IMG/VR virus record: IMGVR_UViG_3300042469_000981
Strand: one strand, 5' to 3'
Source of the DNA: a virus
Length of the DNA: 64,000 nucleotides
In this document: positions 558 through 51,467 of the stretch, one piece after another
How positions within the stretch are numbered: the stretch's first letter is position 1
Layout of the letters: each line of letters starts with the position of its first letter
Translations under genes and position numbers: made by a program
Notes under the pieces: generated by a model
What the model saw: only the letters and a program-made list of their open reading frames with translations
What the model was told of the DNA's origin: nothing
The model's database searches: none

Positions 558-2315
558 TTACGCTGGGAAAGTTGCTCCAGTAGGTAAGATGTTGAAATCC
601 AAGTAAATGAATTCAGCTGTCTTAGTCGGCTGTAAGTAAATTTGACCAACCAATTGGTTTCTATCAATTACATCAGGAGTGTTATTGCTATCATCCATTA
701 CTACTTTAAAAGCATACAAACCTTGACGTTGTTGAACTGATTCCAAATATGGGTTAACTTGGTTCAAGAAACTAGTACGAGTAGCAATTGTGTTCTGTTC
801 AAATACCAAGTTTTGAGCAACTTGAGAAATGTAAGATTTAAGAGCAATTAACAAACGACGAACGTTTACACGATCCAAAGCGCTAGCTTTAGTTTGTAAT
901 GTTTTTTGTCCGTAAACTACAACTCCAGTTCCGGGGAAAGTAGCAATTGGGTTAACTTTATTTTGATATAAAGTGTCGCGTTGTGATTGAGTCAATTTCT
1001 TTTCAGCTCTTACCACTGTGCTTAAACCACCTCTGTTAATACCTGCAGGTGCAAACCAAGGCTCTGATACTGTATCATTGTAAGCATAAACACCACCAAC
1101 CATAGTTGAAGCTGGTACCCAAACCAATTGAGCAGAATCTGGATCAACTGTTTGAACCCAAGGCCAGTATGAAGCAGCGTATGAAGTATTTTTAGCGTTA
1201 GCAGCTGAGGTAGCATCATTAACACTTGAACTAAAAGGTACTAAATCAGTTACATAAATAGCATCTCCACGATTTTGAGTGTTACTAATGATTGATGTTA
1301 CTTGGGAAGCACCAATAGTAGCTGTATTAGCAAATAAACCAGGAGTTAACAATACATTGTATCTGTAGTCATCAGCATTAGCCATCAAACTAATCATATC
1401 ACTGTAATCGCTGCCTGTTAAACCTTGAGTGTTAGTTGAAGCAACATCAATGTTATTATAATAATCAGCGCCTGAACCGAATAAATCACCAACAGCACCT
1501 ATGAATGATCCACTTGCGTTAGCTGGAAGAGATCCGGTTAATGTTGATTTAGCTATACCGTTATTATCAAAATAGAATGGTGTAGGAGTTTTAACACTTT
1601 GTACATACACGTATCTTGAATTGTTAGGATAGTCTCCAGTGATTGAAATTTGGTTATCTACAGAATTGTAAGATTTTACTTGGTTACCAATTATTCTAGA
1701 TACGAAATTAGGAGCGGTTGGGTCCATTGATAAGTTAGTCCAACTTTCTAATACAGTAATGTTATTTGTAGTGTCATCACCTTGACGAATAAACAAACTA
1801 AAAGTACCGTTAGCGGTATCTTGGTTTGCAATTTGCCATCTGATATTATCAGCTGAACCTGAAGCTGTTAATGATCCACTAGCATCTAATGAGCAAGAAC
1901 TGTTCATTAATTTACCTTGTGAAATAGTATTTAATACTAAAGCTTCAGCTGCTGAGGCTGAGTTTAAAATAGATACTCCACCACCTGATCCACCAGTTAC
2001 TGAACCTGTAGCGGTTGTAGCTGAAGTGAATGAACCACTCACTACTCGTGATACCAACAATGTCTCTCCACCGTTATTAAAATAGTTGAAAGCAGCAATT
2101 GAGGTGAAATAAGTGTAAACTTGGCTAGCACTTAAAAAAGTAGTACCAAATTTATTCTGATAATCACTGTATGAAGTAACGATTGTAGGAATTTCTACAG
2201 GGCCTTTAACAGTAGGACCAATAAGAGCGGCTCCTACAGTTACTGGCTGTTGGGTGATAAATGACTGATCGTTTTCAAGTGCGAGTACGCCAGGGGATAT
2301 TAAAGTTTCTGCCAT
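558..2315 (-). CDS. gp18: Tail sheath protein (T4 gp18-like)
   Basis: 585 aa; N-terminal ISPGV, C-terminal PWFAPAGINRG, NKVNPIATFPGTGVVVYGQKTLQ and DRVNVRRLL sheath signatures. Confidence 0.95.
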   Translation of the reverse strand: MAETLISPGVLALENDQSFITQQPVTVGAALIGPTVKGPVEIPTIVTSYSDYQNKFGTTFLSASQVYTYFTSIAAFNYFNNGGETLLVSRVVSGSFTSATTATGSVTGGSGGGVSILNSASAAEALVLNTISQGKLMNSSCSLDASGSLTASGSADNIRWQIANQDTANGTFSLFIRQGDDTTNNITVLESWTNLSMDPTAPNFVSRIIGNQVKSYNSVDNQISITGDYPNNSRYVYVQSVKTPTPFYFDNNGIAKSTLTGSLPANASGSFIGAVGDLFGSGADYYNNIDVASTNTQGLTGSDYSDMISLMANADDYRYNVLLTPGLFANTATIGASQVTSIISNTQNRGDAIYVTDLVPFSSSVNDATSAANAKNTSYAASYWPWVQTVDPDSAQLVWVPASTMVGGVYAYNDTVSEPWFAPAGINRGGLSTVVRAEKKLTQSQRDTLYQNKVNPIATFPGTGVVVYGQKTLQTKASALDRVNVRRLLIALKSYISQVAQNLVFEQNTIATRTSFLNQVNPYLESVQQRQGLYAFKVVMDDSNNTPDVIDRNQLVGQIYLQPTKTAEFIYLDFNILPTGATFPA

Positions 2316-2370
2316 GTTTTAAAAATTAATGATTTTTATTCTATGATAAATATCATAGAAAAAATCAAAA

Positions 2371-2622
2371 TTAACCCACTACAGTAATTTCTCCCTTGTC
2401 CAAATCTATACTTCCGTTACCGTACTTAGATTGAAGAGTATTGTTTAATGTAGCTTCTGAGTTCATAACTTCTACTAAAAGATTAGTTAATGTTTCTTTT
2501 TGTAAAGTTAATTCTTGGATTCTTATTTCAATAAAACCAAAATCAGCCATTAACTGTTCTCTTTTCACTTTTAAATCCTTAATTGCTTGGATTTCTTCTT
2601 GTTCTAAAACTTTTGTTTCCAT
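2371..2622 (-). CDS. Small coiled-coil protein, paralogue of 23739..24017 (possible fibre-assembly chaperone)
   Basis: 83 aa; shares EI.A.K....L..(D/E)FG and L..KYG.G.I....GE(I/F) with 23739..24017. Confidence 0.6.
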   Translation of the reverse strand: METKVLEQEEIQAIKDLKVKREQLMADFGFIEIRIQELTLQKETLTNLLVEVMNSEATLNNTLQSKYGNGSIDLDKGEITVVG

Positions 2623-2632
2623 ATGTTATTTT

Positions 2633-3409
2633 TTAAATATAAGTTCCAATAAATGTAAAATCAACACCACCAGGAGCAGCACTTTCAAAAGTAATTGATG
2701 TATTATTACTTGTAAGAGCGGTCACCACTTGATTAGATTGAGATACTGCTAATCCTAAAAATAAATTTTGATTTAATGTTTTGCCAGTTAAATCAACTGG
2801 GCTTACAGTTACTACAGCCTGATATGGAGGGGTTGTTGATGTTTTACCAGCTCCAGCAAACATTTTTAATATACCAGCTACTGCTACTACTGAACCACTA
2901 GGTACATAATAACTTGTATTACCTAAAGTTGAAGTAGATGTATCTGAAGTAGCAGCTGATACAGCATTAGAGGCTGAAACAGCATAAGAAGCAGTTCCTG
3001 CTACACTACCAGATAATGAACCTGTAATAGAGGTAAATTTACCTACTGAGCCTGAAACTGTCATTCCGCCTAGTCCACCTAGCACATTAAGAGAAGGATT
3101 GTAGTAAGGACCGTTAGTACCATCCGCTGCTAATTGATAATAATCATCTAAAGCAGCTGTTGAGTTTTTAAATACTAATGTATATTCATTGTTTGTAGAA
3201 GCATTACTAGCTACAAATATTTTACTAGAAGAAACAGCATTAGTAAAAAAACCACTACCTGTAGTCGCTCCAGAGAATGCAAATGAACCAGATAATGTTA
3301 TGGCGTATCCCTCAGTACCAGTAAATGCGTCAACTGATTGAGTTACTTGTCCGGGTAATATAACATTACCGTTAGATATACCTGATGTAGAGAGGGTTTT
3401 TAATGCCAT
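2633..3409 (-). CDS. Ser/Thr/Gly-rich virion fibre-like protein
   Basis: 258 aa; beta-rich composition, six [ST]GS motifs, structural-gene context. Confidence 0.55.
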   Translation of the reverse strand: MALKTLSTSGISNGNVILPGQVTQSVDAFTGTEGYAITLSGSFAFSGATTGSGFFTNAVSSSKIFVASNASTNNEYTLVFKNSTAALDDYYQLAADGTNGPYYNPSLNVLGGLGGMTVSGSVGKFTSITGSLSGSVAGTASYAVSASNAVSAATSDTSTSTLGNTSYYVPSGSVVAVAGILKMFAGAGKTSTTPPYQAVVTVSPVDLTGKTLNQNLFLGLAVSQSNQVVTALTSNNTSITFESAAPGGVDFTFIGTYI

Positions 3410-3446
3410 ATGTTAATAAATATATGTTTTTTAGTTAAGTTTTAAA

Positions 3447-5816
3447 TTATAGTCCGAATCTTCCTTTGGTTGCATTATAGTTTTGAGCTATTTCGGTTGC
3501 AGATAATGCTCTGTTGTATATTCTAAAAGCAGCCATCTTATTAGGAGCTTTATCATAAGAGGGTGTTGTAACTGCAGAAAGCTGGTAAGCGTTTCCGGTC
3601 ATTAATTCAAATGTAGAAGCTATATTCATAGTACTTGCTTGTTGAACTCCGTTAACAAACATTTTTACAGTAGTGCCGTCATAAGTCATACTGTATAGTT
3701 TAAAAGTTGCTGAAGGATTTAGTAAGTCTGAAGTAATTTCTGAATAACCAGCTCCGGGATTAATAGCTATCCTAAATCTAGCAGAAGACGTGTTCCCTAC
3801 AAGGCCTATAAACGTGTTTCCACTCATTACCAAATGTGGATATCCTCCAGTTGAATTACCTGTTAATTTACAGTAGTATTCTAAAGTTACAGCACTGAGA
3901 ACTGGTTTATTACCAGTAACGGAGTCATCAATTCCATCAAAGTCGATACAACCACCGCTATCAATGTTAAAGCTAGGTCCATTAATTAAAGTACCGTTAT
4001 TAGCATTTCCGCTTAAATCAGTCCATGTTGTTCCTGTTCCGGGGTATGAATCTTTATTAGCTGAATCTAAATTAATTATTAATCCGTTTGTTACTATTTG
4101 TTGGCCTTGGAATTTGTCTTTAGTTGCTTGATAGTTTTGTTGGACTTCTGATGCTGTGAGTGCTTTACTATATATTCTAGTGTTTGCAATTTTTCCATTA
4201 AATTCATATCCTCCTGCTCCCGTAAATCTTGCAATATACAGAGGTACATTAGGTGTAGTGCCAGAAGATGTACCTGTTGTATTTTCCAGTACTCCATTTA
4301 CATAAACTTTAGCTTGGTAATTTACACTAGCATCTACTGTTACAATAACATGAAACCAGGTATTAGGAGCTATTTGAGTAGTTGAAGGTAAATTAGTGTA
4401 AATCCATCCACTTCCATCTCCAAAATGTGAGTTAAAAAAACCATTTGATATTTCAAATCTAATTCCTAAATTCACATCTAGGATTACTTTTTGAGCTGTA
4501 GTATAAACATTAGGATTTAACCACATTTCTGTACTCCAATTAGATAATGATGGGAAATTAGATGTTACAGCATAATCATCTACTCCATCAAAATTAATAA
4601 TACCACCGTTTATATTATTAAAAGTAGGTCCGTTAGTCAATGTAGCACTAGCTACACTACCTGTTAAGTTATACCATGCTGTTCCTGATTTAGGATATGA
4701 TACTAAATTATTAGCATCTACCATGAATACTAATCCATCTTGAACAATATTACTTTGGAAATAGTTTTGTTTAACTTCTGAAAGTGATAATGCTTTAGAA
4801 TATATTTTAGAATTATTTATATTACCCTGTCTATAAGAATTATAAATATCACTTCCTATATAAGCTTTGGTAGCATTAGATGCTGTATAAGTTGTAATAG
4901 CAGAATTTGATGAGGCGATAGAAGTTCCGTTAACATATAAAGTCCCTGTGTACGATGCACCATTTTTACTCCATGTACCCACAACATGGAAAAATTTTCC
5001 TGTAGCTATATTTGTTGAAGTATAAGTAGTAGAAGAATCAATTAAGTAACTTTGAACAGTGGTATCTATCTGCCAATAAAAACTACCATTTTGTAATCCG
5101 TTTCTCCATTGACCTAAAGTTATATGAGCATAATTGCCTGATGGATAGTTTATGTCATTTACAGACATTAATGTATGATAAGCATTATCATTAGTTGTTG
5201 TACTACATAACATTTCGAATGTAATATCCTGATTATTAAAGGTAGTAGGAGCTATATTAGTTATACTACACGTAACAAAATCATCAACACCATCTAAAAA
5301 AATAGTTCCTAAGGAAGAATTAAAAGTAGGACCGTTAATTAAAGAGCCGTTATTTCCAAAACCACTTGCGTCATACCAACTAGTTCCTGTTTGTGGATAT
5401 GATGTAGGTTGATTAGCATCAACATACAAAACTAACTCATCAGCATCAATCCTAGGAATAGGATTATCCGAGTTATTAATAAAGAAATTATTTGTTACAA
5501 CCCAGTTATAAGCACTACCTGTTGTAGTAAAGTTTCTAGGAGAACCCGGTAATGTATTAGCGGCATAAACAATATTTGCCGAACTGTTATTATAAGCCGG
5601 ATAAAATAAAGGTTTACCTGCCGGTCCTCTACCTAAACTAGTTGAATTACCTATAAAGATAACATTGTTTTCTGCCGGTACTTCACTCATCCAAGATAGT
5701 CCTCCAAAACCTCCTCTGTAGTTACGCTGTTGTCCATCAACAACATATGAGATACTGTTTTCTTGTATACTACCTGATACTGGTGTTCCGGGGTTATATG
5801 ATACTGGTTGTGGCAT
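3447..5816 (-). CDS. Multi-LamG (ConA-like lectin) receptor-binding/tail protein, 3 LamG domains
   Basis: 789 aa; three GL(V/I)xxxD(A/S)xxxxSYPxxGTxWxDxSG...NGPxF...YxxALSxxE(V/I)xQNY modules. Confidence 0.85.
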   Translation of the reverse strand: MPQPVSYNPGTPVSGSIQENSISYVVDGQQRNYRGGFGGLSWMSEVPAENNVIFIGNSTSLGRGPAGKPLFYPAYNNSSANIVYAANTLPGSPRNFTTTGSAYNWVVTNNFFINNSDNPIPRIDADELVLYVDANQPTSYPQTGTSWYDASGFGNNGSLINGPTFNSSLGTIFLDGVDDFVTCSITNIAPTTFNNQDITFEMLCSTTTNDNAYHTLMSVNDINYPSGNYAHITLGQWRNGLQNGSFYWQIDTTVQSYLIDSSTTYTSTNIATGKFFHVVGTWSKNGASYTGTLYVNGTSIASSNSAITTYTASNATKAYIGSDIYNSYRQGNINNSKIYSKALSLSEVKQNYFQSNIVQDGLVFMVDANNLVSYPKSGTAWYNLTGSVASATLTNGPTFNNINGGIINFDGVDDYAVTSNFPSLSNWSTEMWLNPNVYTTAQKVILDVNLGIRFEISNGFFNSHFGDGSGWIYTNLPSTTQIAPNTWFHVIVTVDASVNYQAKVYVNGVLENTTGTSSGTTPNVPLYIARFTGAGGYEFNGKIANTRIYSKALTASEVQQNYQATKDKFQGQQIVTNGLIINLDSANKDSYPGTGTTWTDLSGNANNGTLINGPSFNIDSGGCIDFDGIDDSVTGNKPVLSAVTLEYYCKLTGNSTGGYPHLVMSGNTFIGLVGNTSSARFRIAINPGAGYSEITSDLLNPSATFKLYSMTYDGTTVKMFVNGVQQASTMNIASTFELMTGNAYQLSAVTTPSYDKAPNKMAAFRIYNRALSATEIAQNYNATKGRFGL

Positions 5817-5822
5817 TTAGTT

Positions 5823-6074
5823 TTAGTAATATAAAGATCCAGTTATTATCCATTCTGGTTGAGAAAGAATAACTAAAGCTTCATTATAATTATAAGGACC
5901 TTGTTTGGTATTTAAAGCATTAACTGAAGAGGGTATCTCTCCAAGCCATCTGACTGTTGATAAGGATTCATTTTGAGTTTTTCTAGTAGTAGATGGTGAA
6001 ATTTCTTCTACTTGAGAATAATCAATAGTTCCTATTTCAGAAGTGTTAAATATTATATAAGTTGATTCTTCCAT
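5823..6074 (-). CDS. Small partner protein of LamG fibre gene (paralogue of 8490..8771)
   Basis: 83 aa; (Y/F)xIFNxxE...IDxxQVxE...RK...PSSVxALxTK...YxYxExLxILxxPEW shared with 8490..8771. Confidence 0.65.
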   Translation of the reverse strand: MEESTYIIFNTSEIGTIDYSQVEEISPSTTRKTQNESLSTVRWLGEIPSSVNALNTKQGPYNYNEALVILSQPEWIITGSLYY

Positions 6075-6076
6075 AA

Positions 6077-8485
6077 TTAAACTCCATATTGAGATTTAAT
6101 AGCATTATAATTTTGAGTTACTTCTGTTGATGATAAAGTTCGATTATATAACCGACATATTCCCATCTTTCCAGCCCAAGCTGGCCTATCATCTGTGATT
6201 ACTCCTCCTCCAATATCTAATCTTCCAGAACTGTATAATGTAATATTTGGAGTTGGAGAAACAGTAACATTAACTATTAAATTATTATTTAAATAACATC
6301 TTAAATTACTTGATGAAGGATTGTAAGTTTCAACATAATGAAAATTATTTCCAAATCCTACATTGCTTGAAAAATTAGGAACCATTACATAATCATTACC
6401 AAAATAATATTTATATAAACCATCAGCTCCAACATTATAATATATACCGTTAGATTGATTGGGATTTTGTTGGCCATAAGCAAATAAATGCCAGTTATTG
6501 CCATTGTTTAGCATATTAGCTACAATCTCAATACTATAATTAGGATTTCCTGTAGGTAAGCTTGTAGTAGTATCTGTTCTAAAGAAGTAGTCAGTATCAC
6601 TATTTGTAGGATTCCAATTAAACATACCTCCACCGGGTACTTGGTTCCAATTTATTTGTGAATTACCATTAGTTCCACCGACAGGATTTTGTAACCATGC
6701 TACATTATTTCCATTTCCTGAAATATCATACCATGTTGTTCCTGTTCCTGGGTATGAATCTAAATTGTCTGCTTCTAAATTAAGTACTAATCCGTTTGTT
6801 ACTGGGCCAGCTGGTGTTTCAAATCTGTATTGTTCAGCTTGATAGTTTTGGAGGATTTCGGATGCGGAGAGTGCTTTATTGTATATTTTAGTATTGGCTA
6901 CAGTACCATCAAAATATCTTCCTGAGATATTTATTCTTCCAATATCTAATTGGACTGTAGTGTTACTATTTGTATTTGCTCCAGCACCAGAGGATACTAA
7001 AACCCCATCAACATATATTTCAGCAGTTGTTGCTCCTGTTCTTTGACATGATATATGCCTCCAGGCTCCATTATTTACAGATGTTGTAGATATTAAAAAC
7101 GCACCTCCATCCCAGCCAAAACCAACATATCTATTTGTAGGACTTAATTGAATCCATAATCCTGTACCAGCTGCATCATCATATTTAGAAACAACTCCCA
7201 TATAGTCACTTGAACTTTGATTAGAAGTTTTTATCCAACAAGAAACATTAAAGTTTCCTGTTCCAAAATCTAAACCTGTAGAACCAAAATTAACATAGTC
7301 ATCTGTACCATCAAATACAATTGAACCACCATTGTTTATGTTAAAAGTAGGTCCATTAGTTAATGCACCATTACCTACACTACCTGTTAAATTATACCAC
7401 GCTGTTCCTGATTTAGGGTATGATACTATATTATTAGCATCTACAGCAAATACTAGACCGTCTGTGACTATTGGTGCTCCAAAATAGTTTTGTTTGACTT
7501 GAGCTTCTGTTAAAGCTCTAGGATAAACTTGAGTGTTTGCTATACTTCCATTAAAGTGATATCCTGTAGTTGAACCATTATACCAACTACCAATTCTTTC
7601 ACCGTTATTATTGACTTGGATTGTGGCATTATATGTTGTTGATAAAACATTAGTACCGTTGATATACATTTTTGCAACACTACCATCATAAGTAACAATA
7701 GTGTTATACCATCTATTTGCTATAAAATAAGTTGAACTACCAACTTGGAAATCTTGCATTCCAATCCCATTAAACATAAACCTTAATTTAAAAGTAGGAT
7801 TTTCAAAAAATAAAGCATATTGAGTATTCACATATCCTTTTTCAAATAAAAATCCATTTTGTGATGCTAATGCTGGAGAAAAAGTACTACTAACTGTAAT
7901 ACTGTCACTATTTAATGCTGTGTCATTAGGGAAGTTTACATAATCATCAGTACCGTCAAAAGCAAAATATCCATTTGAATTCCATGTAGGACTATTAGTT
8001 AAAGTTCCATTTGTGCCTTTCCCACTTAAATCTCTCCAGTTAGTCCCTGTTTGTGGATATGAAGACATTTTAGAAGCATCTACATCAAATGCTAAACTAT
8101 CAGCATCTACTCCCTCAAATGGATCATTTGACTCTAAAATAAAATAACCTCTAGCATTTATTAAATCGTTTAATGCAACATTGGCATCAGAATAATTACC
8201 CGGTGAACCAGGTATACGATTAGCCGTATATAAAATAGCTGCCGAACCTGTTCCATTACAAGAATAAAACAATGGTACTGCTAGACTAGGATTACCTTCA
8301 AACCCTTGAGTATAAGTGTCTGTTACAAAAACAATTGGGGCAGCACCGTCTGCCGAAGGTACCCATTTTTTAGAAGCAAAGGTAGTATAGTCCCTATTAC
8401 CACTGTCTACAGTGTAATTAACATTACCTCCCCTGATGCTTCCTGATAAAGGACCAGAAGCATTATATGCTATAGGTCTAGACAT
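6077..8485 (-). CDS. Multi-LamG receptor-binding/tail protein, 3 LamG domains
   Basis: 802 aa; same module architecture and N-terminal P(V/I)xYN...SGSI domain as 3447..5816. Confidence 0.85.
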   Translation of the reverse strand: MSRPIAYNASGPLSGSIRGGNVNYTVDSGNRDYTTFASKKWVPSADGAAPIVFVTDTYTQGFEGNPSLAVPLFYSCNGTGSAAILYTANRIPGSPGNYSDANVALNDLINARGYFILESNDPFEGVDADSLAFDVDASKMSSYPQTGTNWRDLSGKGTNGTLTNSPTWNSNGYFAFDGTDDYVNFPNDTALNSDSITVSSTFSPALASQNGFLFEKGYVNTQYALFFENPTFKLRFMFNGIGMQDFQVGSSTYFIANRWYNTIVTYDGSVAKMYINGTNVLSTTYNATIQVNNNGERIGSWYNGSTTGYHFNGSIANTQVYPRALTEAQVKQNYFGAPIVTDGLVFAVDANNIVSYPKSGTAWYNLTGSVGNGALTNGPTFNINNGGSIVFDGTDDYVNFGSTGLDFGTGNFNVSCWIKTSNQSSSDYMGVVSKYDDAAGTGLWIQLSPTNRYVGFGWDGGAFLISTTSVNNGAWRHISCQRTGATTAEIYVDGVLVSSGAGANTNSNTTVQLDIGRINISGRYFDGTVANTKIYNKALSASEILQNYQAEQYRFETPAGPVTNGLVLNLEADNLDSYPGTGTTWYDISGNGNNVAWLQNPVGGTNGNSQINWNQVPGGGMFNWNPTNSDTDYFFRTDTTTSLPTGNPNYSIEIVANMLNNGNNWHLFAYGQQNPNQSNGIYYNVGADGLYKYYFGNDYVMVPNFSSNVGFGNNFHYVETYNPSSSNLRCYLNNNLIVNVTVSPTPNITLYSSGRLDIGGGVITDDRPAWAGKMGICRLYNRTLSSTEVTQNYNAIKSQYGV

Positions 8486-8489
8486 TTAA

Positions 8490-8771
8490 TTAAGCTGCTG
8501 AACCTGAAGGGAATGGATTAGGATCTGTCCATTCTGGAGTTGCTAAAATAGTTAAAATCTCATCGTATGTGTATTCGATTGATTTTGTAGTTAAAGCAGC
8601 AACTGATGAAGGTTGAGGCATATCGTATTTAACGAATGTTTGAGTTTTATCAACTGATTTACGAACTGTATCAATTGAGGTTTCATAGACTTGATTAAAG
8701 TCGATTAAAGGAAGTTCTGTAACGTTAAAAATTACAAAGCGTCTGTTTGCGTATTCTTCTTGTGTTGTCAT
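8490..8771 (-). CDS. Small partner protein of LamG/Gly-rich fibre gene (paralogue of 5823..6074)
   Basis: 93 aa; alignment by eye to 5823..6074; own ATATTTATAA motif at 8784..8793. Confidence 0.65.
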   Translation of the reverse strand: MTTQEEYANRRFVIFNVTELPLIDFNQVYETSIDTVRKSVDKTQTFVKYDMPQPSSVAALTTKSIEYTYDEILTILATPEWTDPNPFPSGSAA

Positions 8772-8796
8772 TTTATTATTTTGTTATAAATATTAA

Positions 8797-10281
8797 TTAT
8801 AAACCAAATCTTGCTTTTTGTGCATTGTAGTTTTGAAGAACCTCAGCAGCTGATAGACCTCTACTATAGACTCTTAAAGTAGATAAATTCCCTGGAAAGG
8901 CATAAGATGAATTTGAGCTAAACCCAGGACCATCAAAACTTGAATTTGTAGATGTTGCTGATGTTGAAGTTATTAGTTGTCCATTAATATATAATGAAGC
9001 TGTGCCTCCGGTTAGATTACCGGTGTATGATAATAAAAGTTGCCTCCAGGTACTGTCCCCAAGATTAATTGTATGAGTTAAACTTACAAATGTTCTTGTC
9101 CCATTAATAAAGTTCAAACAACGTAGTGTGTTAGGTGTATAATAAACAGCGTGACATCCTGGGGTGTCAATAGTACCTGTTCCATATTTTAGTAATTCAA
9201 CTTGTTTATTGGTTGTTTGTTTGAACCACATTTCTAAAGTGCTTCCATTATTTAAAGTTCCCCCAGCTATTGTAACAAAATCATCACTACCATCAAATGT
9301 TAAAGTACCCCCATTTTGATAAGAATTAAACCCTATTCCATTAACTAACGTTCCATTATTACTATTCCCACTTACATCATTCCACAAATATGGTGTAAAC
9401 GTTCCACTAGTGGTAAATGTATGGATTGTGTATCCGTTTAGGTATGTAATTGTACCTCCGGTTGCTGCTGGGAGACCTGGGTAACGTACTATAACTATGC
9501 CTGAGCCACCGTTACCACCACTTCCACCACCACCACCAGAGTTTCCTCCTCCGCCACCACCAGTATTGGCAGTAGCAGCAAACCCATTTACATTAATTCC
9601 ACCAGCACCATTACCTCCACCACCAAGTCCTCCTGTGCCTCCTGGTGGGTTTGGGTATGTTCCACCACCTCCACCCCCTGCGTAATAAGTAGAGGTTCCT
9701 GAAATAGAATATGCATTTCCATTCCCACCATTACCAGCTGTACTCCCATTGGCATTTTGACCAGTTTGTCCAGCTCCACCACCACCACCAGCACCACCAC
9801 TAGTAGTATTTGGGTCTCCTATACCACCGTTAAATCCTTGCCCAGCCGTTCCTAAACCGAAGATTGTACGTTCACTACTAACCCAACCTCCAGCTCCTCC
9901 TCCTGAGCCACCATTCTTTACAGGACCATAAACATAAGCTCCGGATCCATTAGCTCCTCCTCCACCTCCAATAGCAGTGAGTGAACCAAATACAGAATTA
10001 TTTCCACTTGTACTTTGACCAGCAGGAGGTCCACCAGATCCACCAGCACCAACAGTTACAGTAATAGCAGCGGCATTAGTTAATTGATAAGCACTGTTAT
10101 ATATTAAACCACCAGCACCTCCGCCACCACCAAAGTCAAATCCACCTCCACCACCACCAGCAACAACTAATACCTCAACATATGGAGGTTGTGAGCGAGT
10201 GTATGAATCCGGATCGCCTGCATCTAGGTTTAATACTAAACCATTTGTTACTATACCTTGTGGACCTTCAAATCTACTCAT
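8797..10281 (-). CDS. LamG domain split by an inserted glycine-rich (polyglycine-II type) domain
   Basis: 494 aa; GLVLNLDAGDPDSY, then VEVLVVAGGGGGG...GGSGIVIVRY, then WNDVSGNSNNGTLVNG...ALSAAEVLQNY-like LamG remainder. Confidence 0.8.
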   Translation of the reverse strand: MSRFEGPQGIVTNGLVLNLDAGDPDSYTRSQPPYVEVLVVAGGGGGGFDFGGGGGAGGLIYNSAYQLTNAAAITVTVGAGGSGGPPAGQSTSGNNSVFGSLTAIGGGGGANGSGAYVYGPVKNGGSGGGAGGWVSSERTIFGLGTAGQGFNGGIGDPNTTSGGAGGGGGAGQTGQNANGSTAGNGGNGNAYSISGTSTYYAGGGGGGTYPNPPGGTGGLGGGGNGAGGINVNGFAATANTGGGGGGNSGGGGGSGGNGGSGIVIVRYPGLPAATGGTITYLNGYTIHTFTTSGTFTPYLWNDVSGNSNNGTLVNGIGFNSYQNGGTLTFDGSDDFVTIAGGTLNNGSTLEMWFKQTTNKQVELLKYGTGTIDTPGCHAVYYTPNTLRCLNFINGTRTFVSLTHTINLGDSTWRQLLLSYTGNLTGGTASLYINGQLITSTSATSTNSSFDGPGFSSNSSYAFPGNLSTLRVYSRGLSAAEVLQNYNAQKARFGL

Positions 10282-12017
10282 TATTTTGTTGCGTTATAGT
10301 TTTGTAAGACTTCGTCTGCTGTTAATCCTCTGTTATATAAGTTAACACTAGCTATGTTACCATTAAAAAATCCACCAACAGCTCCCCCAACATAAGCTCC
10401 TATTTGAACAGGAACTGTTGTTGATGTTACGGCTGTATTGAAGCTTGAATTAGTTTGTTTTAATACACCATTGATATATACCTTACCATTACCTGCACCA
10501 TCTGATGTGGCAACAACATGATTCCATTGGTTATATTGTATATTTGTAAGTGCAGGATTATTTACGTAAGTCCAATTTGAATTGAACACTCCAAACCAAA
10601 TATATGGAGTTCCTGTATCATTAGCAATGTACAATTCAAAACTTCTTTCATTAGCACCATAAGTTGCTCTAGTACATATAATTTCGTAGGTTCCATTAGG
10701 TACAATATTAGCATAAAACCATGCTTCTATTGAAAAATTAGCATTAGCAAAATCATATGCTGAATTGTATGTAGTATTTATATAATCATCAGTTCCATCA
10801 AATACAATAACACCTCCATCTTTAGGACTAAACGTAGGTCCATTAGTTAAAGTACCATTAACACTTCCTGTTAAATTGTACCATGCGGTTCCTGATTTAG
10901 GATATGATACTAAATTACCAGCATCTAAAGCAAATACTAATCCACTTGTTACTATTGGACCACCGTAGTAGTTTTGAGCTACTTCTGCTGCTGTGAGTGC
11001 TTTAGGATAAACTAAAGCTTGAGCTATATCCCCAGTTAATATTTCACTAGCTGCTGAAGGAGTATAGGAACTTAAAACATGTACTCCGTTAGTTCCTCCA
11101 TTACTTCCAATATTAACTCCCGTTTGAGTTGCTACTCCATTTAAATAAGCAGTTGCTGTTGAACCATTGTAAGTCATTGTTAAATGATAAAAACGTCCTG
11201 TAGCTATAGTGCCTCCGTTGGTGTAAAGTAATCCACCCCCACCTCCATTTCTACCATACATGAAAGCATTATTACTGTAAAATCCAATCTGAGAAAGTAA
11301 TCCTCCTGTACCTAATACTGTTTGGTAAGTACCACCACCACTAGTTCTAGCTACAGCAGTTAATGTAAAAGAAGAAGTAGTATTACTTGGTAAAGTTGTG
11401 TTAACAGCTACAGCATAATCATCTGATCCGTCAAAATTAATCCATCCGTTTGAGTTATAAGTAGGCCCGTTAATTAAATTAAATCTATTATTTTGACCAC
11501 TTATATCATACCAAGTAGATCCTGTTGTAGGGTATGAAATAATTTGATTACCATGAATATATAACCCTAAATTATCAGCATCAATTTGCTCATAATAATC
11601 AGGCCCAACAGCAAAATAATTACTAGAAGAGGCAATCCAATTCAACGCTTGTGAACCAGAGTTAAATGGAGTTTGACCTATTCTATCCGGTAAACCATTT
11701 ACAATTGTTATAACATCTAAAGAAGATGTACCTACTGTTACCCAAAACACAGGAGCTGAATATTCATCTACTGCAGGTAAACCGCCTTCAACATAAGCAC
11801 CTCCCGCGTTTGAGCGAGATACATAGTAGTTAGCTGTATAATTATCTGAAATAATTGTATAGAATTGTCCGTTATTTGGAATATCGGAATACCAATTAGT
11901 ACTGTTGTAGTTTTGCCCGTAATTTTTTCCGGCAGTTTCTACCCCGTAACTAACTCTGGATGTCTGTAAGCTTCCTGAAATTGGGGATAGGTCATTAACA
12001 GCTACTGGGTTTGGCAT
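10281..12017 (-). CDS. Multi-LamG receptor-binding/tail protein, 2 LamG domains
   Basis: 578 aa; two LamG modules, N-terminal domain related to 3447 and 6077. Confidence 0.85.
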   Translation of the reverse strand: MPNPVAVNDLSPISGSLQTSRVSYGVETAGKNYGQNYNSTNWYSDIPNNGQFYTIISDNYTANYYVSRSNAGGAYVEGGLPAVDEYSAPVFWVTVGTSSLDVITIVNGLPDRIGQTPFNSGSQALNWIASSSNYFAVGPDYYEQIDADNLGLYIHGNQIISYPTTGSTWYDISGQNNRFNLINGPTYNSNGWINFDGSDDYAVAVNTTLPSNTTSSFTLTAVARTSGGGTYQTVLGTGGLLSQIGFYSNNAFMYGRNGGGGGLLYTNGGTIATGRFYHLTMTYNGSTATAYLNGVATQTGVNIGSNGGTNGVHVLSSYTPSAASEILTGDIAQALVYPKALTAAEVAQNYYGGPIVTSGLVFALDAGNLVSYPKSGTAWYNLTGSVNGTLTNGPTFSPKDGGVIVFDGTDDYINTTYNSAYDFANANFSIEAWFYANIVPNGTYEIICTRATYGANERSFELYIANDTGTPYIWFGVFNSNWTYVNNPALTNIQYNQWNHVVATSDGAGNGKVYINGVLKQTNSSFNTAVTSTTVPVQIGAYVGGAVGGFFNGNIASVNLYNRGLTADEVLQNYNATK

Positions 12018-16657: not shown

Positions 16658-17268
16658 GGTTTCCAGATTCCTATCCCACCGAAGTGTTCTTTTTGTCCAA
16701 AACAAGTTGTTTTACCTGATGATTTTATAGTAACTATGTTAGTTTTAGAACCATAAGATAGGTCCTGCCAAAATTTATATACCTGTCCACCAGCACCATC
16801 TCTAAAGATATGGTCAGGATCAATATCATGAAACACAATATACCCTCTAGGTGACAATAATTCTTGATATAATTCAAAATCACGTCTTACACCTTCATAT
16901 GAATGATCTCCATCAATAAAAATTAGATCATATTCAGGGCAGAACTCTTTAACTTTATCTCTTGTTTCTTCAGTTTGTGAATCAGCTATAAATAACTTAA
17001 AGTCTTCTCCATACATCATATAGTGAGACCAAATTGTTCTACCTTTATCCTCATAATCAACAGCTGCTTTTTTACCTGTTGATAATTGAGACATAATATG
17101 AAATGAACTTCCTTTAAATCCAATTTCTAGGATATTGTTAGCTTGAAATCCTTTAAGCCAGTAACCAAATGTAGTTATCTCCTCATAAACCTGCTGGAAT
17201 AAAGTAGGTTCGATAAGGAAATCCTTAACATGATAGTCAATTAATTCCTGTATACTTATGTCTTTCAT
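16654..17268 (-). CDS. Class I SAM-dependent methyltransferase (Methyltransf_24-like, probable sugar O-methyltransferase)
   Basis: 204 aa; ILEIG motif I, YDLIFIDGDHSYEGVRRDF, GYIVFHD. Confidence 0.85.
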   Translation of the reverse strand: MKDISIQELIDYHVKDFLIEPTLFQQVYEEITTFGYWLKGFQANNILEIGFKGSSFHIMSQLSTGKKAAVDYEDKGRTIWSHYMMYGEDFKLFIADSQTEETRDKVKEFCPEYDLIFIDGDHSYEGVRRDFELYQELLSPRGYIVFHDIDPDHIFRDGAGGQVYKFWQDLSYGSKTNIVTIKSSGKTTCFGQKEHFGGIGIWKP

Positions 17269-18218: not shown

Positions 18219-18243
18219 TATTTATAAAACTTTTTATTTTCTT

Positions 18244-21115: not shown

Positions 21116-21117
21116 TT

Positions 21118-21726: not shown

Positions 21727-21728
21727 AG

Positions 21729-42140: not shown

Positions 42141-42557
42141 TTAGGCAGGATTAACTTCAGTAACTTGTTTGCTTAATTGTACTTGACCTTCGAGCAATCT
42201 AATTTTTTCACTTCCAGAAGTTAGTTCAATATCATAATAAGCGTTACCTGTAAAGACTAAATCTTGTGTTGTTGCCCATCCGGCGTATATTCCTATACTG
42301 CCTGATGTTACAGATGTAGTACCATTACTACCTGAAAAACTTAAAAAAGCACTACTGCTATTAAAATTATAAGTGTCTCCTAAACTAGAAGTTAAAGTTA
42401 AATAGGTTTGACCACTACCGCTATAAGCTGAACGAATTTGCATAGCACCTTCATAACCAGCCAAACTTATAGGTTCACCAACCGAGTCTTTATATTGTAA
42501 TTCTAAATTTAGAGTAGCACCTTGTTCAATGATAAAAGAATATTTTCCAGCAGCCAT
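42141..42557 (-). CDS. Beta-sandwich virion adaptor (BppU-N/baseplate-upper-like)
   Basis: 138 aa; IEQGATLNLELQYKDSVGEPISLAGYEGAMQIR...YYDIELTSG..KIRLLEGQV. Confidence 0.6.
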   Translation of the reverse strand: MAAGKYSFIIEQGATLNLELQYKDSVGEPISLAGYEGAMQIRSAYSGSGQTYLTLTSSLGDTYNFNSSSAFLSFSGSNGTTSVTSGSIGIYAGWATTQDLVFTGNAYYDIELTSGSEKIRLLEGQVQLSKQVTEVNPA

Positions 42558-45614: not shown

Positions 45615-46394
45615 TTATGCTATTCTTCCTACTGTTAATATAACTGAAGGGACATTTGGTCCTATGACAGCTGATGTATTGTAATGGATTCGGAAATTAG
45701 TTTGAGTAGCTCCATATCTTAATTCATAATAATCCCCAGCAGAGGCAGACACATAAAAATTCCAAGCTGCTACTTGAGCATCGTTTGCTCCTCCTGCTAA
45801 AGTAATTTGTGTATTAGAATCAGGAACATCTTCTCCATTTTTTGCTAACCATATATAACTACTTACTGTAGTACCACTTGTTTTATCTATTTGAGCTGAA
45901 AATTGAATATCATAAACACCAGCATTAGCTATCTGAATTTGATTTCTAATAGGTCCTCCTATAGTTATCCCATTAGAAAAATCGGTTGTGCTAAAAGACA
46001 TTGAATACGGAGTATTCTGAACAGAAGCTGTTAACGATGCTGTATGATAAGCAGATAAGTAATAGGATTGGATTGAACTAGTATAAGTGTTAAAACTAGA
46101 AGTTGTTACAAATGAACTAGTTTGAGAGTTTGTTATAAAAGATCCTGTTTGAGAATTTGTTACAAAAGATCCTGTTTGAGAATTTGTTACAAACGAACTA
46201 GTTTGAGAATTTGTTACAAAAGATCCTGTTTGAGAATTTGTTACAAACGAACTAGTTTGAGAATTTGTTACAAAGTTACTTGTTAAATTGCTATAAGTAA
46301 TTTGACTAGTAATACCTCCTTGTACAATAGGTAATACATCTACTCCTGTAGGAACAGATGCTGAAGGTAATCCGGATATTGGTAAATTAGGCAT
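45615..46394 (-). CDS. Virion protein with 9-aa tandem repeats and C-terminal C1q/TNF-like (BclA-CTD-like) domain
   Basis: 259 aa; ISGLPSA...LPIVQGG N-terminus; (FVTNSQT[SG]S) repeats; ANAGVYDIQFSAQI...YELRY...VILTV. Confidence 0.65.
   Translation of the reverse strand: MPNLPISGLPSASVPTGVDVLPIVQGGITSQITYSNLTSNFVTNSQTSSFVTNSQTGSFVTNSQTSSFVTNSQTGSFVTNSQTGSFITNSQTSSFVTTSSFNTYTSSIQSYYLSAYHTASLTASVQNTPYSMSFSTTDFSNGITIGGPIRNQIQIANAGVYDIQFSAQIDKTSGTTVSSYIWLAKNGEDVPDSNTQITLAGGANDAQVAAWNFYVSASAGDYYELRYGATQTNFRIHYNTSAVIGPNVPSVILTVGRIA
46105..46275 (-). repeat. 27-bp coding tandem repeat, 6 full plus 1 partial copy
   Basis: gtttgagaatttgttacaaa(a/c)ga units encoding F(V/I)TNSQT(S/G)S. Confidence 0.95.
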
Positions 46395-46396
46395 AG

Positions 46397-46742: not shown

Positions 46743-48524
46743 TTAGATGGTGTTCAAACCATTAATATAGATCTTACCGTAGAATTCAGGACGCAACATC
46801 TTCTTAGCGTAGCGAGTCAAAAGACCTTTACGTGGAGTGAAGGTATCAGGATCGTACACCAAAGGAGTCATGATCAAAGGAATGTATGGAGAGAATACAG
46901 CACCTGTTTCCAAGAACTGAGAACCTCTGTAACCCATCAAGATCAAGTTTTCAGTCATGTAAGGGTTTTTGTAAACCTTGTAACGACCGTTAACTGAACC
47001 TACCTTTTGTACACCGAAAGCGTACTCCATTTGATCAGCTTCACCGTTTGAAGTAGAAGCAAATCCTGGGATTGATTCCAAGATAGTAGCTACTGTTGGA
47101 GAAGTAACCAAGAAGTTAGCACCTCCACGTAAAGTCAACTGGTGGATCTTGTTAGATACTTTTTGGATTTTAGTACCTAAAGTTTGGAACCACTGACCTT
47201 GAGTGTTGTAGTAACCTGAAGATAAAGTAGATAAAGTTGGAGTTGAACCTGTGATAACAGTGTTATTAATAGCTGACCAGTACTCAGTAGCAGCAGCAGC
47301 ATCTTCGATCAACATATCCAAGATTTCCAAATCAATTTCCATTGAAATGTACTCACTCATAATGTTAGTCAATTCAGCTTCAGCATCAATGTTCTGGTAA
47401 GCAGCCAAATCTTGAGCAAATTCAGGAGTCCATACTGCTTTCAATTTCTTGGTTTTAGCAGTGATAGGCTGTGATTGCATCTTAACGTTAATTTCAGGGA
47501 TAACGATCTGAGCAGCGTTAGCAGCGTTAGGAACTGAGAAAGAACCTGAAGCTTCGAAATCACCACGACCTGAGTAGTTACCTGAAGTTACGTTGTCACC
47601 TGAAGTACCAGCACCAGTGAAACCAGCGTTAATACCATCTTGAGAACCTACTTTTTCATAGTAAACTGTGAAAATAGATCCTGATTGAGGAGTAGAAGCA
47701 AAGTTTGCAGAAGCAGTAAAGAAGAAAGCAATAGTACCAGCAGTGTAGTTAAAGTTAGTGAACGCAGGCAACAAAGTAGTAGCTGTGAAGTTTGAACCTG
47801 AAGTAGGAACGAAACCACGAACGGCATTCATATCGAAGCTTGGTAAAGCAGCGTTAGAAGCAGTCATAGTTACTTTGTAGATACGACCAGCAGCTACAGA
47901 AGCTGAGTAGTCAGAATCGAAATTCAATTCAGCCCATGAAGCAGAAACGATAGAACCAGTACCAGCACCAACTGTAGTTAAAGCGTTAGCTATAGAAGCA
48001 GTAGCTTGGAAAGAAGCTGAGAATTGGTTAGTAGCGTAAGTGAAACGACCTTCAGGACCACCATACAAACCACCTTCAGCGGCAGGAGTAGAGAATGGGA
48101 ACTGAGAAGCAGTGTTACGGTTACCGTACAAAGACTGACCAGTAGTGTAAGGATTCTTAGTGTTACCATATTGGAAATCCAAGAAGAACACAAGACCAGA
48201 AGGCATGTTCATAGGTTGAACTGAAACGAATTCTTTAGCAACGATAGTTCCGAATACTTTACGAACTAAAGGCAAAGCAATACCAGCCCAGTTTTCACCT
48301 TGACCACCTGATGTGAAATAAGAGTTAGAAGCGATTTGGTTAGATTCAGTTACCAATTGCTTGGCCTGGTTTTCTAACAAGATTGACATATTATTTTTGT
48401 CAACTTCTACTAATCCTTCCAACAATCCAGTTTTTGACCATTTGCCGGCCAATTTAGCAGCGTCACTTTGGAAATTCTTCCAAGAACCAGCTGCGCTTTC
48501 GAGTAATTGTTGTACGTTTGACAT
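46743..48524 (-). CDS. gp23: Major capsid protein (T4 gp23-like) with Ser/Thr/Ala-rich insertion
   Basis: 593 aa; VSVQPMNMPSGLVFFLD, AKTKKLKAVWTPEFAQDL, YIPL...DPDTFTPRKGLLTRY. Confidence 0.95.
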   Translation of the reverse strand: MSNVQQLLESAAGSWKNFQSDAAKLAGKWSKTGLLEGLVEVDKNNMSILLENQAKQLVTESNQIASNSYFTSGGQGENWAGIALPLVRKVFGTIVAKEFVSVQPMNMPSGLVFFLDFQYGNTKNPYTTGQSLYGNRNTASQFPFSTPAAEGGLYGGPEGRFTYATNQFSASFQATASIANALTTVGAGTGSIVSASWAELNFDSDYSASVAAGRIYKVTMTASNAALPSFDMNAVRGFVPTSGSNFTATTLLPAFTNFNYTAGTIAFFFTASANFASTPQSGSIFTVYYEKVGSQDGINAGFTGAGTSGDNVTSGNYSGRGDFEASGSFSVPNAANAAQIVIPEINVKMQSQPITAKTKKLKAVWTPEFAQDLAAYQNIDAEAELTNIMSEYISMEIDLEILDMLIEDAAAATEYWSAINNTVITGSTPTLSTLSSGYYNTQGQWFQTLGTKIQKVSNKIHQLTLRGGANFLVTSPTVATILESIPGFASTSNGEADQMEYAFGVQKVGSVNGRYKVYKNPYMTENLILMGYRGSQFLETGAVFSPYIPLIMTPLVYDPDTFTPRKGLLTRYAKKMLRPEFYGKIYINGLNTI

Positions 48525-48564
48525 TTTTTTAAATTGTTTTTTTTTTTGTTTTTTGTTTTGTTTT

Positions 48565-49800: not shown

Positions 49801-49945
49801 TTGTTTTTTGTCCTCAAATAATTTTTTTTTGTTGGAAATACGCTTATTGTTGATTGCTCGAAGCGTAATAGATATTAAAAATCTAGATGCTATATAGAAA
49901 TAGCATATTTGTCGGGTATACGTATATCAAAATATTTTAAAATGT

Positions 49946-49976
49946 AAAAAGAAACCCTCCTTTTTTAAGGGAGGGT
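49946..49976 (-). terminator. Rho-independent terminator after prohead protease
   Basis: Minus strand ACCCTCC(C)TT-AAAA-AAGGAGGGT followed by TTCTTTTT. Confidence 0.75.
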
Positions 49977-50004
49977 CAATCAAGGGATACTATCCCAAGA
50001 GGGG

Positions 50005-50610
50005 TTAAAATATAGGGCAAGATCCGTTAGCGCATAGTATTTCTGTTAATAAAGAATTCACTTTACCATATGAATATGTTTTATGTTCTTTACCTTCTTT
50101 TACTAACTGCATATATGATCCTGGATTTGAAGGTGTTGATACAAAGTCCCAACATAGTAATTCAAAATCATCTTGAACTTCTAATGTACCTTCATTAATT
50201 TCTTTTAATGATCCCATTCCACGAGATGATACACCTACCATAACATTATTTTCAATAAGTGCTTTTAGGATGTTACCAGACACTGTGGGTAGGATTTCTA
50301 TTTTTCCTATTACTTTATCTCCTTCCCAGTAAGTTTCTCTAATAATATGGGATACATTTTTTAATGATATGATTGAAGAATCAGGGTGATCTAACTCACC
50401 TGTGGCTCTATTTTCTCTAATCATTTCATTGTACTTATCAATTTCACGTTCCCACAATTCTTTAGGATAATATCTACCATTACCATTTTTTACTTCAGCA
50501 GTTGCTAAAATACCAACAACCATAGGATTACCAGAAGGTGCTTTTAAACCTTCAGTAAGTTGTATAGGGGCAACTTTAAATGGTATAGTTTCAATTAATA
50601 CCTGTTTCAT
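50005..50610 (-). CDS. gp21: Prohead maturation protease (T4 gp21-like)
   Basis: 201 aa; NGNGRYYP, GELDHP, VSHII, VGVSSRGMGS, WDFVSTPS. Confidence 0.95.
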   Translation of the reverse strand: MKQVLIETIPFKVAPIQLTEGLKAPSGNPMVVGILATAEVKNGNGRYYPKELWEREIDKYNEMIRENRATGELDHPDSSIISLKNVSHIIRETYWEGDKVIGKIEILPTVSGNILKALIENNVMVGVSSRGMGSLKEINEGTLEVQDDFELLCWDFVSTPSNPGSYMQLVKEGKEHKTYSYGKVNSLLTEILCANGSCPIF

Positions 50611-51227
50611 TATTTTTTCTTAGGTAAATCTCCGTATCCGCTAGCTTTCCATTTGCCTTTAGGCGCTACTGGTTCACCACCGCCGATTACGTCAGTCTTA
50701 TAACCAATACCTTTAACACCAAATGAAGCTTCTTTATGATAGTAACTGATGTCTTTAGCCATGTTTTTAGCAACAATAGCTTTTAACTCATCAACTGTTT
50801 TATCTTTATTTTTAGGATCTTTCATTTCCGTGTAGTAACCCATTAAGAATGACTGACCGTAAAGGTTATCAATGTTTTTAGGATCTTTATTATCAAATTG
50901 GTTGTCTAAATCTTTTTGAACATCAGTATCAATTTTTTCAAATTCATTTTGATCACCATATTCTTTTTTATCTTTAACACCTACTGCCTCAGCAATATTA
51001 TCATTAAAGATTTTAAACCAATCTTGTTGAAAAGGTTTTAATGTAACTACACCACCGACTGCTTCAGATAAAATACTTTTACCTTTTAAGATATTAACAG
51101 CGGTTTTATAATCAGTTAAAGGGGCAATAAACTCAGGAAATACACGACGAGCACTTTTTAAAAAGTCGTCTTTACTTCCTTTACCTTCTTTAATAAGGTT
51201 GTATTGTTGTTGTAAGGTCTTTTCCAT
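50610..51227 (-). CDS. Hypothetical head-associated protein
   Basis: 205 aa; LIKE, LSEA and IAEA putative processing sites. Confidence 0.55.
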   Translation of the reverse strand: MEKTLQQQYNLIKEGKGSKDDFLKSARRVFPEFIAPLTDYKTAVNILKGKSILSEAVGGVVTLKPFQQDWFKIFNDNIAEAVGVKDKKEYGDQNEFEKIDTDVQKDLDNQFDNKDPKNIDNLYGQSFLMGYYTEMKDPKNKDKTVDELKAIVAKNMAKDISYYHKEASFGVKGIGYKTDVIGGGEPVAPKGKWKASGYGDLPKKK

Positions 51228-51239
51228 TTGTTATAAATA

Positions 51240-51467
51240 TTATGGGTAAAGTAATATTGCTCCTGATGATAAAGAAGCGCTTGTTACATAGATAGGAATA
51301 GTAAATCCAGCTGGGATAATCCAGTCTGTTGTAGTTAATTCAGATCCATTAGCGTCTTTTAAACCGGTGATAGTAGCTGAACCAGATACTACGGTAAATC
51401 CGGCAAAACTTCCTGTTGCTGTTGTTGTGGTTACTATTCCGGTGGGGTTTACTGGTATTGTTGCCAT
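51240..51467 (-). CDS. Small beta-rich hypothetical protein (candidate capsid decoration)
   Basis: 75 aa; T/S/G-rich, two [ST]GS motifs. Confidence 0.5.
   Translation of the reverse strand: MATIPVNPTGIVTTTTATGSFAGFTVVSGSATITGLKDANGSELTTTDWIIPAGFTIPIYVTSASLSSGAILLYP

Follow-up and report, generated by a model that had tools for sequence, protein, structure and literature searches.

The [ST]-G-S tripeptide of phage virion proteins and a BAHT cassette associated with collagen-like fibres in a T4-related aquatic phage

To our knowledge, bacterial autotransporter heptosyltransferases (BAHTs) are known only with bacterial autotransporters, and we know of only a few phage groups in which virion glycosylation has been shown chemically. 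A BAHT homologue is encoded on the stretch analysed here, 64,000 nucleotides of the IMG/VR record IMGVR_UViG_3300042469_000981 (the window), which corresponds to positions 60167-124166 of one 135,792-bp viral contig. All window genes lie on the minus strand and form a T4-like late region comprising terminase, portal, major capsid protein (MCP), fibre, sheath and tube genes. The structural proteins encoded there are enriched in the ordered tripeptide [ST]-G-S (Ser or Thr, then Gly and Ser), which an earlier note had proposed to be a modification signal written for the phage's own BAHT-containing glycosylation cluster. Judged from sequence, the motif is a real, clade-wide surface feature, and its link to the BAHT cluster is not supported.

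Comparison with described glycosylation systems

The closest described systems are the TibC-TibA and Aah-AIDA-I enzyme-substrate pairs of E. coli (PDB 4rap and 4rb4; PMC4358343). The phage enzyme was assigned to the same family:

18994..20187, minus strand: BAHT, 397 amino acids (aa), homologue of the TibC/Aah-type strand-loop-strand O-heptosyltransferases (TIGR04414; PDB 4rap)

It scores 319.8 bits against TIGR04414 (hepto_Aah_TibC), for which the equivalog cutoff is 200, over model positions 12-373 of 374, in agreement with the assignment made in the earlier note. Residues 22-393 align to residues 21-386 of TibC (PDB 4rap, E = 9e-57), including the N-terminal beta-barrel, and a weak match to Pfam TibC_1st was also obtained. 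Like TibC and Aah, the phage protein is a full-length, cytoplasmic family member in which the catalytic, sugar-binding and iron-binding residues are kept: the catalytic base of TibC, Asp-110, is identical, as are Lys-230, Arg-286 and Trp-305, Thr-226 is replaced by Ser, and all four iron-finger cysteines (Cys-339/342/358/370) are aligned (C-x2-C ... WCP ... FEC). The dodecamer of TibC needs the thumb tip F265/V266 (PMC4358343). This hydrophobic tip is not kept in the alignment of the phage enzyme, which has D-E there on a hairpin five residues longer, so that its oligomeric state is uncertain. The residue governing stereoselectivity is Pro in TibC, Ser in Aah and Gly in the phage enzyme.

TibC, Aah and their known relatives act on long, repetitive substrates, where the serines that they hyper-modify are located in Ser-Gly loops. 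In the AIDA-I sequence of a porcine E. coli plasmid the pattern [VI]-x-S-G-G occurs 28 times; the phage motif has the same Ser-Gly core and strand-loop-strand setting. Whereas the substrates of TibC and Aah are autotransporters, no autotransporter was found next to the phage gene, whose neighbours are glycosyltransferase (GT) genes, collagen-like fibre genes and the sheath gene; the enzyme travels instead with Gly-[ST]-[ST] collagen-like fibres. The phage BAHT also differs from TibC and Aah in being coupled to further GTs and methyltransferases. A phage-encoded ADP-heptose pathway was considered and rejected, since no heptose-nucleotide genes were found in the contig: there is no GmhA-type gene and only a sub-threshold cytidylyltransferase match. 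Close to the contig end lies a gene for a 274-aa zeta-toxin/AAA_33 kinase-like protein (L178:10591-11415, minus strand, genome about 134.8-135.6 kb), adjoined by an 832-aa open reading frame (ORF) with a sub-threshold cytidylyltransferase-like match at its N-terminus.

A second set of candidate enzymes is encoded elsewhere in the contig:

genome 13.5-21.2 kb (L174:4567-12192), outside the window: second GT/methyltransferase cluster, adjoining a PD-(D/E)XK nuclease gene

This cluster encodes a GT2, a Methyltransf_24 protein, a weakly matching GT10-like protein, another GT2, a 151-aa protein and a tandem GT-B pair of 473 and 477 aa (GT473 and GT477). The GT-B pair, a 202-aa GT2 (GT2-202) and the 151-aa protein form a conserved core, and the remaining GT and methyltransferase genes are variable.

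Viruses that glycosylate their own particles offer further parallels. The chlorovirus capsid is glycosylated by virus-encoded cytoplasmic GTs (PMC5408694), and there, as may be the case here, the GTs and methyltransferases that assemble the glycan are encoded by the virus itself; the chlorovirus protein B736L (structure 3oy2) is the closest solved relative of GT477 (E = 4e-7). Chloroviruses are, however, eukaryotic viruses with N-linked glycans at atypical sites, and the similarity to GT477 is weak and covers part of the GT-B fold only. In mycobacteriophages, phage-encoded glycosylation of the virion is reported to affect the C-terminal ends of capsid and tail-tube subunits (Freeman et al. 2023, as summarised in PMC12619734). 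The mycobacteriophage GT genes are placed with structural genes, as here, and their products modify the phage's own virion proteins, but the glycans sit at C-termini. The candidate sites of the present phage, known from sequence alone, lie in internal loops of the sheath, of the capsid insertion and of the fibres, and its enzymes are unrelated to those of the mycobacteriophages. The pair GT473 and GT477 also resembles GtfA/GtfB of the serine-rich repeat adhesins, a cytoplasmic tandem GT-B pair of about 450-500 aa that acts on Ser-small-Ser repeats; the sequence match of the phage GT (to Gtf1, E = 3e-4, about 60 residues) is marginal and membership is not established. Publications describing a BAHT in phages, or a sequon in sheath or capsid proteins, were not found in the literature searches made.

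Enrichment and position of the [ST]-G-S tripeptide

A set of 58 tiling ORFs from the window was translated and searched for [ST]GS. The recount reproduced every per-protein figure of the earlier note, including the absence of the motif from portal, terminase and tube (0 in each). The proteins concerned are as follows, with expectations taken from whole-protein shuffles:

558..2315, minus strand: tail sheath, 585 aa (phrog_23, E = 3e-75); 7 [ST]GS at residues 93-300, 0.95 expected
2633..3409, minus strand: 258-aa short-fibre-like protein; 6 [ST]GS, 1.15 expected; S40-G41-S42 invariant in the family
3447..12017, minus strand: three paralogous LamG-type fibre proteins of 789, 802 and 578 aa and a fourth paralogue of 494 aa, with small partner proteins
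24084..29039, minus strand: proline-poor collagen-like (Gly-Ser/Thr-Ser/Thr) fibre, 1651 aa (Pfam Collagen, PF01391, E = 2e-151)
32460..39215, minus strand: 2251-aa fibre; 28 [ST]GS within larger repeats (FTGS-x-x-x-SGS; SGSNVGIGT), 9.5 expected
39238..42129, minus strand: collagen-like fibre, 963 aa (Pfam Collagen, PF01391, E = 3e-88)
42141..42557, minus strand: 138-aa virion-module protein (phrog_1084), termed an adaptor in the earlier note; 4 [ST]GS, 0.5 expected
45615..46394, minus strand: 259-aa protein with a 'NSQTGSFVT' repeat; 3 [ST]GS
46743..48524, minus strand: MCP, 593 aa; 5 [ST]GS, 0.9 expected; four in the insertion 130-343
51240..51467, minus strand: 75-aa protein; 2 [ST]GS spaced ten residues apart, 0.25 expected

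The carriers contain Ser/Thr/Gly-rich patches, and the test was therefore rerun with shuffles confined to blocks of 10-50 residues. The excess persisted under these composition-preserving shuffles: the structural block without its two collagen-like fibres held 78 [ST]GS against about 30 expected (z≈9 at each block size), and with the giant fibre removed as well the figures were 50 and 20 (z≈6). SGS and TGS are among the most over-represented of all tripeptides, while the reordered forms GS[ST], G[ST]S and S[ST]G were not enriched (observed/expected 0.65-0.86). The similar bias of SAS and TAS reported earlier was also recovered, [ST]AS being enriched about twofold. Residues flanking the motif are often hydrophobic (58% before and 54% after, against a background of 31%). 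Put more precisely, its form is hydroxyl-small-hydroxyl flanked by hydrophobic residues. Enrichment in the structural block is thus confirmed and specific to the ordered tripeptide.

An origin of this excess in Ser/Thr/Gly-rich composition, paralogy or a DNA repeat was weighed against these results. The carriers are indeed rich in Ser, Thr and Gly, and in the collagen-like fibres the motif falls out of the Gly-X-Y repeat automatically; the earlier note had counted these two as GSS-repeat fibres built from the tripeptide, and the motif is present there, but as a by-product of Pfam Collagen repeats. The three LamG proteins and the 494-aa protein are paralogous, as are the 83-aa and 93-aa proteins, and sites common to either set are consequently not independent; homology was accepted as the source of common sites for these two sets only. 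A common homologous domain was ruled out for the sheath, MCP and the 258-, 138-, 259-, 75- and 248-aa proteins, as these non-fibre carriers show no detectable similarity to each other. Serine codons at the sites are a mixture of TCN and AGY, which places the constraint at the protein level and excludes a DNA-level repeat as the source. With 10-residue block shuffles still giving z≈9 without the collagen-like fibres and z≈6 without the giant fibre too, and with the permuted tripeptides unenriched, an artefact of this kind is very improbable.

The remainder of the genome contains 2 [ST]GS against 11.9 expected. This is only marginally under the usual background ratio (T4 0.32, immuto 0.53, G001 0.63), and as ratios well below 1 are ordinary in the controls, it is poor evidence of avoidance. 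Avoidance of the motif in non-structural proteins as the sign of a cytoplasmic enzyme was rejected on the same backgrounds.

The position of the sites was examined in 108 non-redundant sheath orthologues (54-93% identity). All [ST]GS lie inside reference residues 62-301, and the C-terminal half has none. Conserved columns at 152 (89%), 268 (72%) and 93 (68%) account for the bulk of the sheath excess, and sporadic sites occur at about chance level; the motif is held by purifying selection at about eight sheath positions. At the conserved sites SGS is substituted by SAS, SSS, TSS or TAS, so that hydroxyl-small-hydroxyl is retained; the window sheath itself has SAS at residues 62 and 119 and TAS at 150. 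At sites 93, 152 and 226 SGS also interchanges with NGT, a classic turn. In an AlphaFold 2 model of the sheath (mean predicted local distance difference test score, pLDDT, 70.7), which matched T4 gp18 and other sheaths best, site 93 lies between strands 86-90 and 95-97, a strand-loop-strand arrangement, and sites 146-154 fall within a long low-confidence loop.

In the MCP only residues 82-129 and 344-573 could be aligned to T4 gp23, and the intervening residues 130-343 hold four of the five [ST]GS together with [ST]AS sites between 138 and 270. Site 242 is common to this phage and its relatives G001 and immuto, site 189 to this phage and G001, and sites 281, 326 and 425 were found in this phage only. 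The claim that the motif is confined to variable, outward-facing segments therefore stands for sheath residues 62-301 and the MCP insertion, with exposure predicted from the sheath and gp23 architecture. Orthologues of the 138-aa protein in G001 and immuto retain 3-4 sites, and the repeat type of the 2251-aa fibre recurs in a 508-aa structural protein of phage Mel-JY01. The 258-aa protein matched no Pfam or PHROG family, and its AlphaFold model is confident only for the C-terminal beta domain (180-258), residues 1-178 having pLDDT <50.

Two further patterns from the earlier note fared less well. The N-terminal SGS of the LamG proteins is seen as x13-SGS-[IL], with NLTGSV sites, but is common to them by paralogy and does not count as independent. 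The [ST]GS tags at the C-termini of small proteins are real in this phage but absent from five orthologues of the 93-aa protein. One tag carrier is not a virion protein:

42599-43336, minus strand: PhoH-like protein, 245 aa, 60% identical to immuto PhoH

The tags were rejected as a functional signal on both grounds. The PhoH-like gene lies within the structural gene block of the window and has the same placement in immuto and Mel-JY01.

The closest isolates are Flavobacterium phage immuto (complete genome; MCP 53% and sheath 51% identical) and Microcystis phage Mel-JY01 (MCP 47%); G001 is a 155-kb, 95%-complete relative. LR756508, with an MCP 46% identical, served as an outgroup as distant as Mel-JY01. 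Enrichment is not general to myovirus virions: the 50-kb structural module of T4 has 4 [ST]GS against 12.6 expected and its sheath none, the sheath of cyanophage S-PRM1 has 1 against 2.3, and a 50-kb structural stretch of LR756508 has 13 against 10.8. No BAHT was found in the complete immuto genome, nor were homologues of the other window-cluster enzymes detectable there by BLAST, and no BAHT was found in G001, which is missing the whole cluster. Nevertheless, one structural region of immuto holds 46 [ST]GS against 20.5 expected and another, the baseplate and fibre block, 35 against 9.1, with 7 against 1.7 in the sheath, 4 against 0.5 in the orthologue of the 138-aa protein and 12 against 1.3 in a 373-aa protein; its non-structural proteins have 8 against 15.1. 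The corresponding figures for G001 are 121 against 29 in structural regions and 8 against 12.6 in the remaining genome. In Mel-JY01 the middle domain of the sheath is non-homologous, and it is enriched as well ([ST]GS 4 against 0.74; [ST][GAS][ST] 17 against 7.2). Carriers of the feature thus comprise an immuto-like clade of T4-related aquatic phages: this phage, G001, immuto and, in part, Mel-JY01.

These relatives run counter to the proposal that [ST]GS signals to the phage's own BAHT cluster. Phages without the cluster are equally or more enriched, partly at the same positions, an outcome that the earlier note itself had listed as refuting the proposal, and since the sites are positionally conserved the motif is better regarded as an inherited clade trait than as one written for the BAHT. 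Among metagenomic relatives, sheaths with the BAHT module upstream have a mean of 6.12 sites (n=74) and those without it 5.27 (n=15, each with at least 6 kb of upstream sequence), a difference with a Mann-Whitney p of 0.06 that is uncorrected for phylogeny.

The BAHT cassette and the collagen-like fibres

The BAHT gene is flanked by further enzyme genes:

20168..23720, minus strand: GT4 (315 aa), GT2 (202 aa) and GT1 (663 aa) (Pfam)
15542..18990, minus strand: accessory GT2 (387 aa), Methyltransf_24, FkbM methyltransferase and a 248-aa ORF (Pfam)

About 80 relatives have the gene order GT1(663 aa)>GT4>BAHT>small protein>sheath>tube, and the three enzymes GT1, GT4 and BAHT make up the conserved core of the module, which lies just upstream of the sheath gene. 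The accessory genes at 15542..18990, between the BAHT and the fibre genes, are missing from this common architecture, and the extra fibre, GT2 and methyltransferase genes between BAHT and sheath were seen only in this window. The interval from the p290 gene to the sheath gene (558-24017 in the window) is an insertion hot spot: it is empty in some relatives, whereas others have LamG fibres, a 258-aa fibre or the collagen+GT+BAHT cassette at this place, and the window has all these inserts together with the additional GT2 and methyltransferase genes.

Giant collagen-like fibres of the Gly-[ST]-[ST] type, poor in proline, accompany the GT1(663)-GT4-BAHT cassette. Pfam Collagen giants were present in all seven BAHT-positive genomes (this phage, G006-G010 and Mel-JY01) and in none of the four BAHT-negative ones (G001, immuto, G002 and G003). 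At the level of loci, all 12 that carry a Ser-rich Gly-X-Y giant ORF are BAHT-positive, and of the BAHT loci with 9 kb or more of sequence upstream (17 unique ones), 11 are preceded on the same strand by a Gly-X-Y ORF that is rich in Ser and poor in proline. In Mel-JY01 the collagen giant lies just upstream of the BAHT fusion gene. This co-occurrence makes the collagen-like fibres the likelier BAHT substrate, and their pattern fits the habit of BAHTs of hyper-modifying long repetitive proteins; the 1651-aa fibre is the likely main substrate. Two observations weigh on the other side: BAHT-positive LR756504 has no Gly-X-Y ORF within 20 kb, and the genome counts are small and partly related, G009 and G010 being near-identical. 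A protein encoded in G001 (53.8-58.7 kb; L111) matches the 963-aa fibre of the window best but is without Collagen-family repeats; gain and loss of the collagen segment thus appear to follow those of the BAHT.

In Mel-JY01 (L158:4750-8430, 1226 aa) and in the megaphage LR756501 (L179:18975-21191, 738 aa) the BAHT belongs to a larger fusion protein, of which it makes up the C-terminal domain, with a Gly-X-Y ORF close by in both. The Mel-JY01 fusion has no annotation other than 'methyltransferase FkbM', and part of it resembles the 663-aa GT1 of the window, which ties BAHT and GT1 to a single pathway.

Taken together, the data are read here in two parts: a clade-wide motif independent of the BAHT cluster, and a BAHT cassette acting on collagen-like fibres, a combination given roughly even chances of being correct. 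In its first part, [ST]-G-S is a feature of outward-facing, beta-rich virion segments throughout the clade. As to the second, the cassette, inserted just upstream of the sheath gene with the BAHT as its last enzyme, would most likely hyper-O-glycosylate the collagen-like fibres in the cytoplasm during late expression. The BAHT would place the first sugar on Ser, and the other GTs and the methyltransferases would extend and cap it. As BAHTs act on Ser-Gly loops, some S-G-S loops of sheath or capsid may also be hit. Should the motif turn out to be structural, it would still stand apart from a distinct and better-supported system, in which an adhesin-type heptosyltransferase cassette carried by phages is paired with proline-free collagen-like fibres; the pairing suggests a route to fibre stabilisation without proline.

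Possible roles of the tripeptide

Three readings of the motif were compared, of which a structural turn ranks first, a sugar site for another enzyme second and a sequon for the BAHT third. The purely structural account, in which the tripeptide would be a strand-turn-strand element peculiar to this lineage and used in surface domains and fibre repeats, is the leading one, with a probability put a little under one half. Supporting it are the interchange of SGS with NGT and the location of the fibre sites within longer repeats also found in Mel-JY01. Several findings weigh against it, and some of them also against a motif independent of the BAHT. One ordered tripeptide occurs in at least seven non-homologous proteins of the clade and not in T4, the S-PRM1 sheath or LR756508. 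At sheath sites 62, 140 and 260 Ala or Ser freely takes the place of Gly with both hydroxyls kept, so that these sites resemble a recognition pattern more than a Gly-dependent turn. Every motif-rich phage has another GT cluster, and the BAHT gene adjoins the sheath gene in most relatives.

That last arrangement favours the view of the earlier note, a BAHT sequon coating the whole virion, as do the genuine BAHT identity of the enzyme, the Ser-Gly loops between short strands in natural BAHT substrates, the slightly richer BAHT-positive sheaths (6.1 against 5.3 sites) and the three MCP sites of this phage that are absent from G001. The view is nevertheless improbable, as neither immuto nor G001 has the BAHT or any other enzyme of its cluster and both are yet enriched, partly at the same positions, and as the BAHT co-varies with the collagen-like fibres instead. 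A tentative proposal, less probable than the structural turn, is that the motif is an O-glycosylation acceptor for the separate, clade-specific enzyme set at genome 13.5-21.2 kb, with sheath, capsid and fibres sugar-coated. The tripeptide might then be the sequon of the 473/477-aa GT-B pair and GT2, and the BAHT cassette a second, separately acquired system for the proline-free collagen-like fibres; this fuller version is likewise held only tentatively. The cluster core is common to this phage, G001 and immuto. GT473 and GT2-202 occur in Mel-JY01, whose sheath middle domain is enriched, and are missing from the non-enriched LR756508; among 50,697 phage records GT473 was found in immuto and Mel-JY01 only. 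The substitutions that retain hydroxyl-small-hydroxyl, the lack of homology between carriers and the solved relatives of GT477 (the chlorovirus GT and, weakly, the O-GlcNAc transferase Gtf1 of serine-rich repeat proteins) also agree with an acceptor site. The correlation, however, is drawn from about six genomes, and phylogeny is a confounder, also for GT473 and GT2-202 in the four enriched phages. GT477 was rejected as the enzyme tracking the motif, being present in non-enriched LR756508 and in RM378, and SGS interchanges with the NGT turn. The cluster lies amid nuclease and DNA-metabolism genes, outside the late operon, so that DNA or other glycan targets are equally possible. In Mel-JY01 the GT477 homologue is broken by a TGA: its gene (record 83444-84929) is split by this in-frame codon, which could mean that the gene is a pseudogene or is recoded, or that the sequence is in error.

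Should the motif prove to be an acceptor, a short signal on contractile sheath and capsid would make glycan-shielded phages predictable from sequence, and such shielding could affect host range, particle stability and immune recognition. If the second cluster were the enzyme set concerned, widespread aquatic T4-related phages, including cultured immuto and Mel-JY01, would be sugar-coated on sheath, capsid and fibres. These two cultured relatives, immuto without a BAHT and Mel-JY01 with one, make both ideas directly testable.

Motif pairs spaced exactly 10 residues apart ([ST]GS-x7-[ST]GS) were observed in four unrelated proteins: the sheath (93/103), the 258-aa protein (40/50 and 119/129), the 75-aa protein (18/28) and the 138-aa protein (75/85). 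The spacing could correspond to two turns that are joined, in all four proteins, by a strand of seven residues. A mosaic make-up was seen in the 258-aa family, the C-terminal beta domain of some members being swapped for one like the C-terminus of the 259-aa protein ('AWNF...GDY.EL'; window 2633-3409 and 45615-46394, both minus strand; L042:11209-12204; L101:28-969), a pattern that suggests an exchange of receptor-binding heads.

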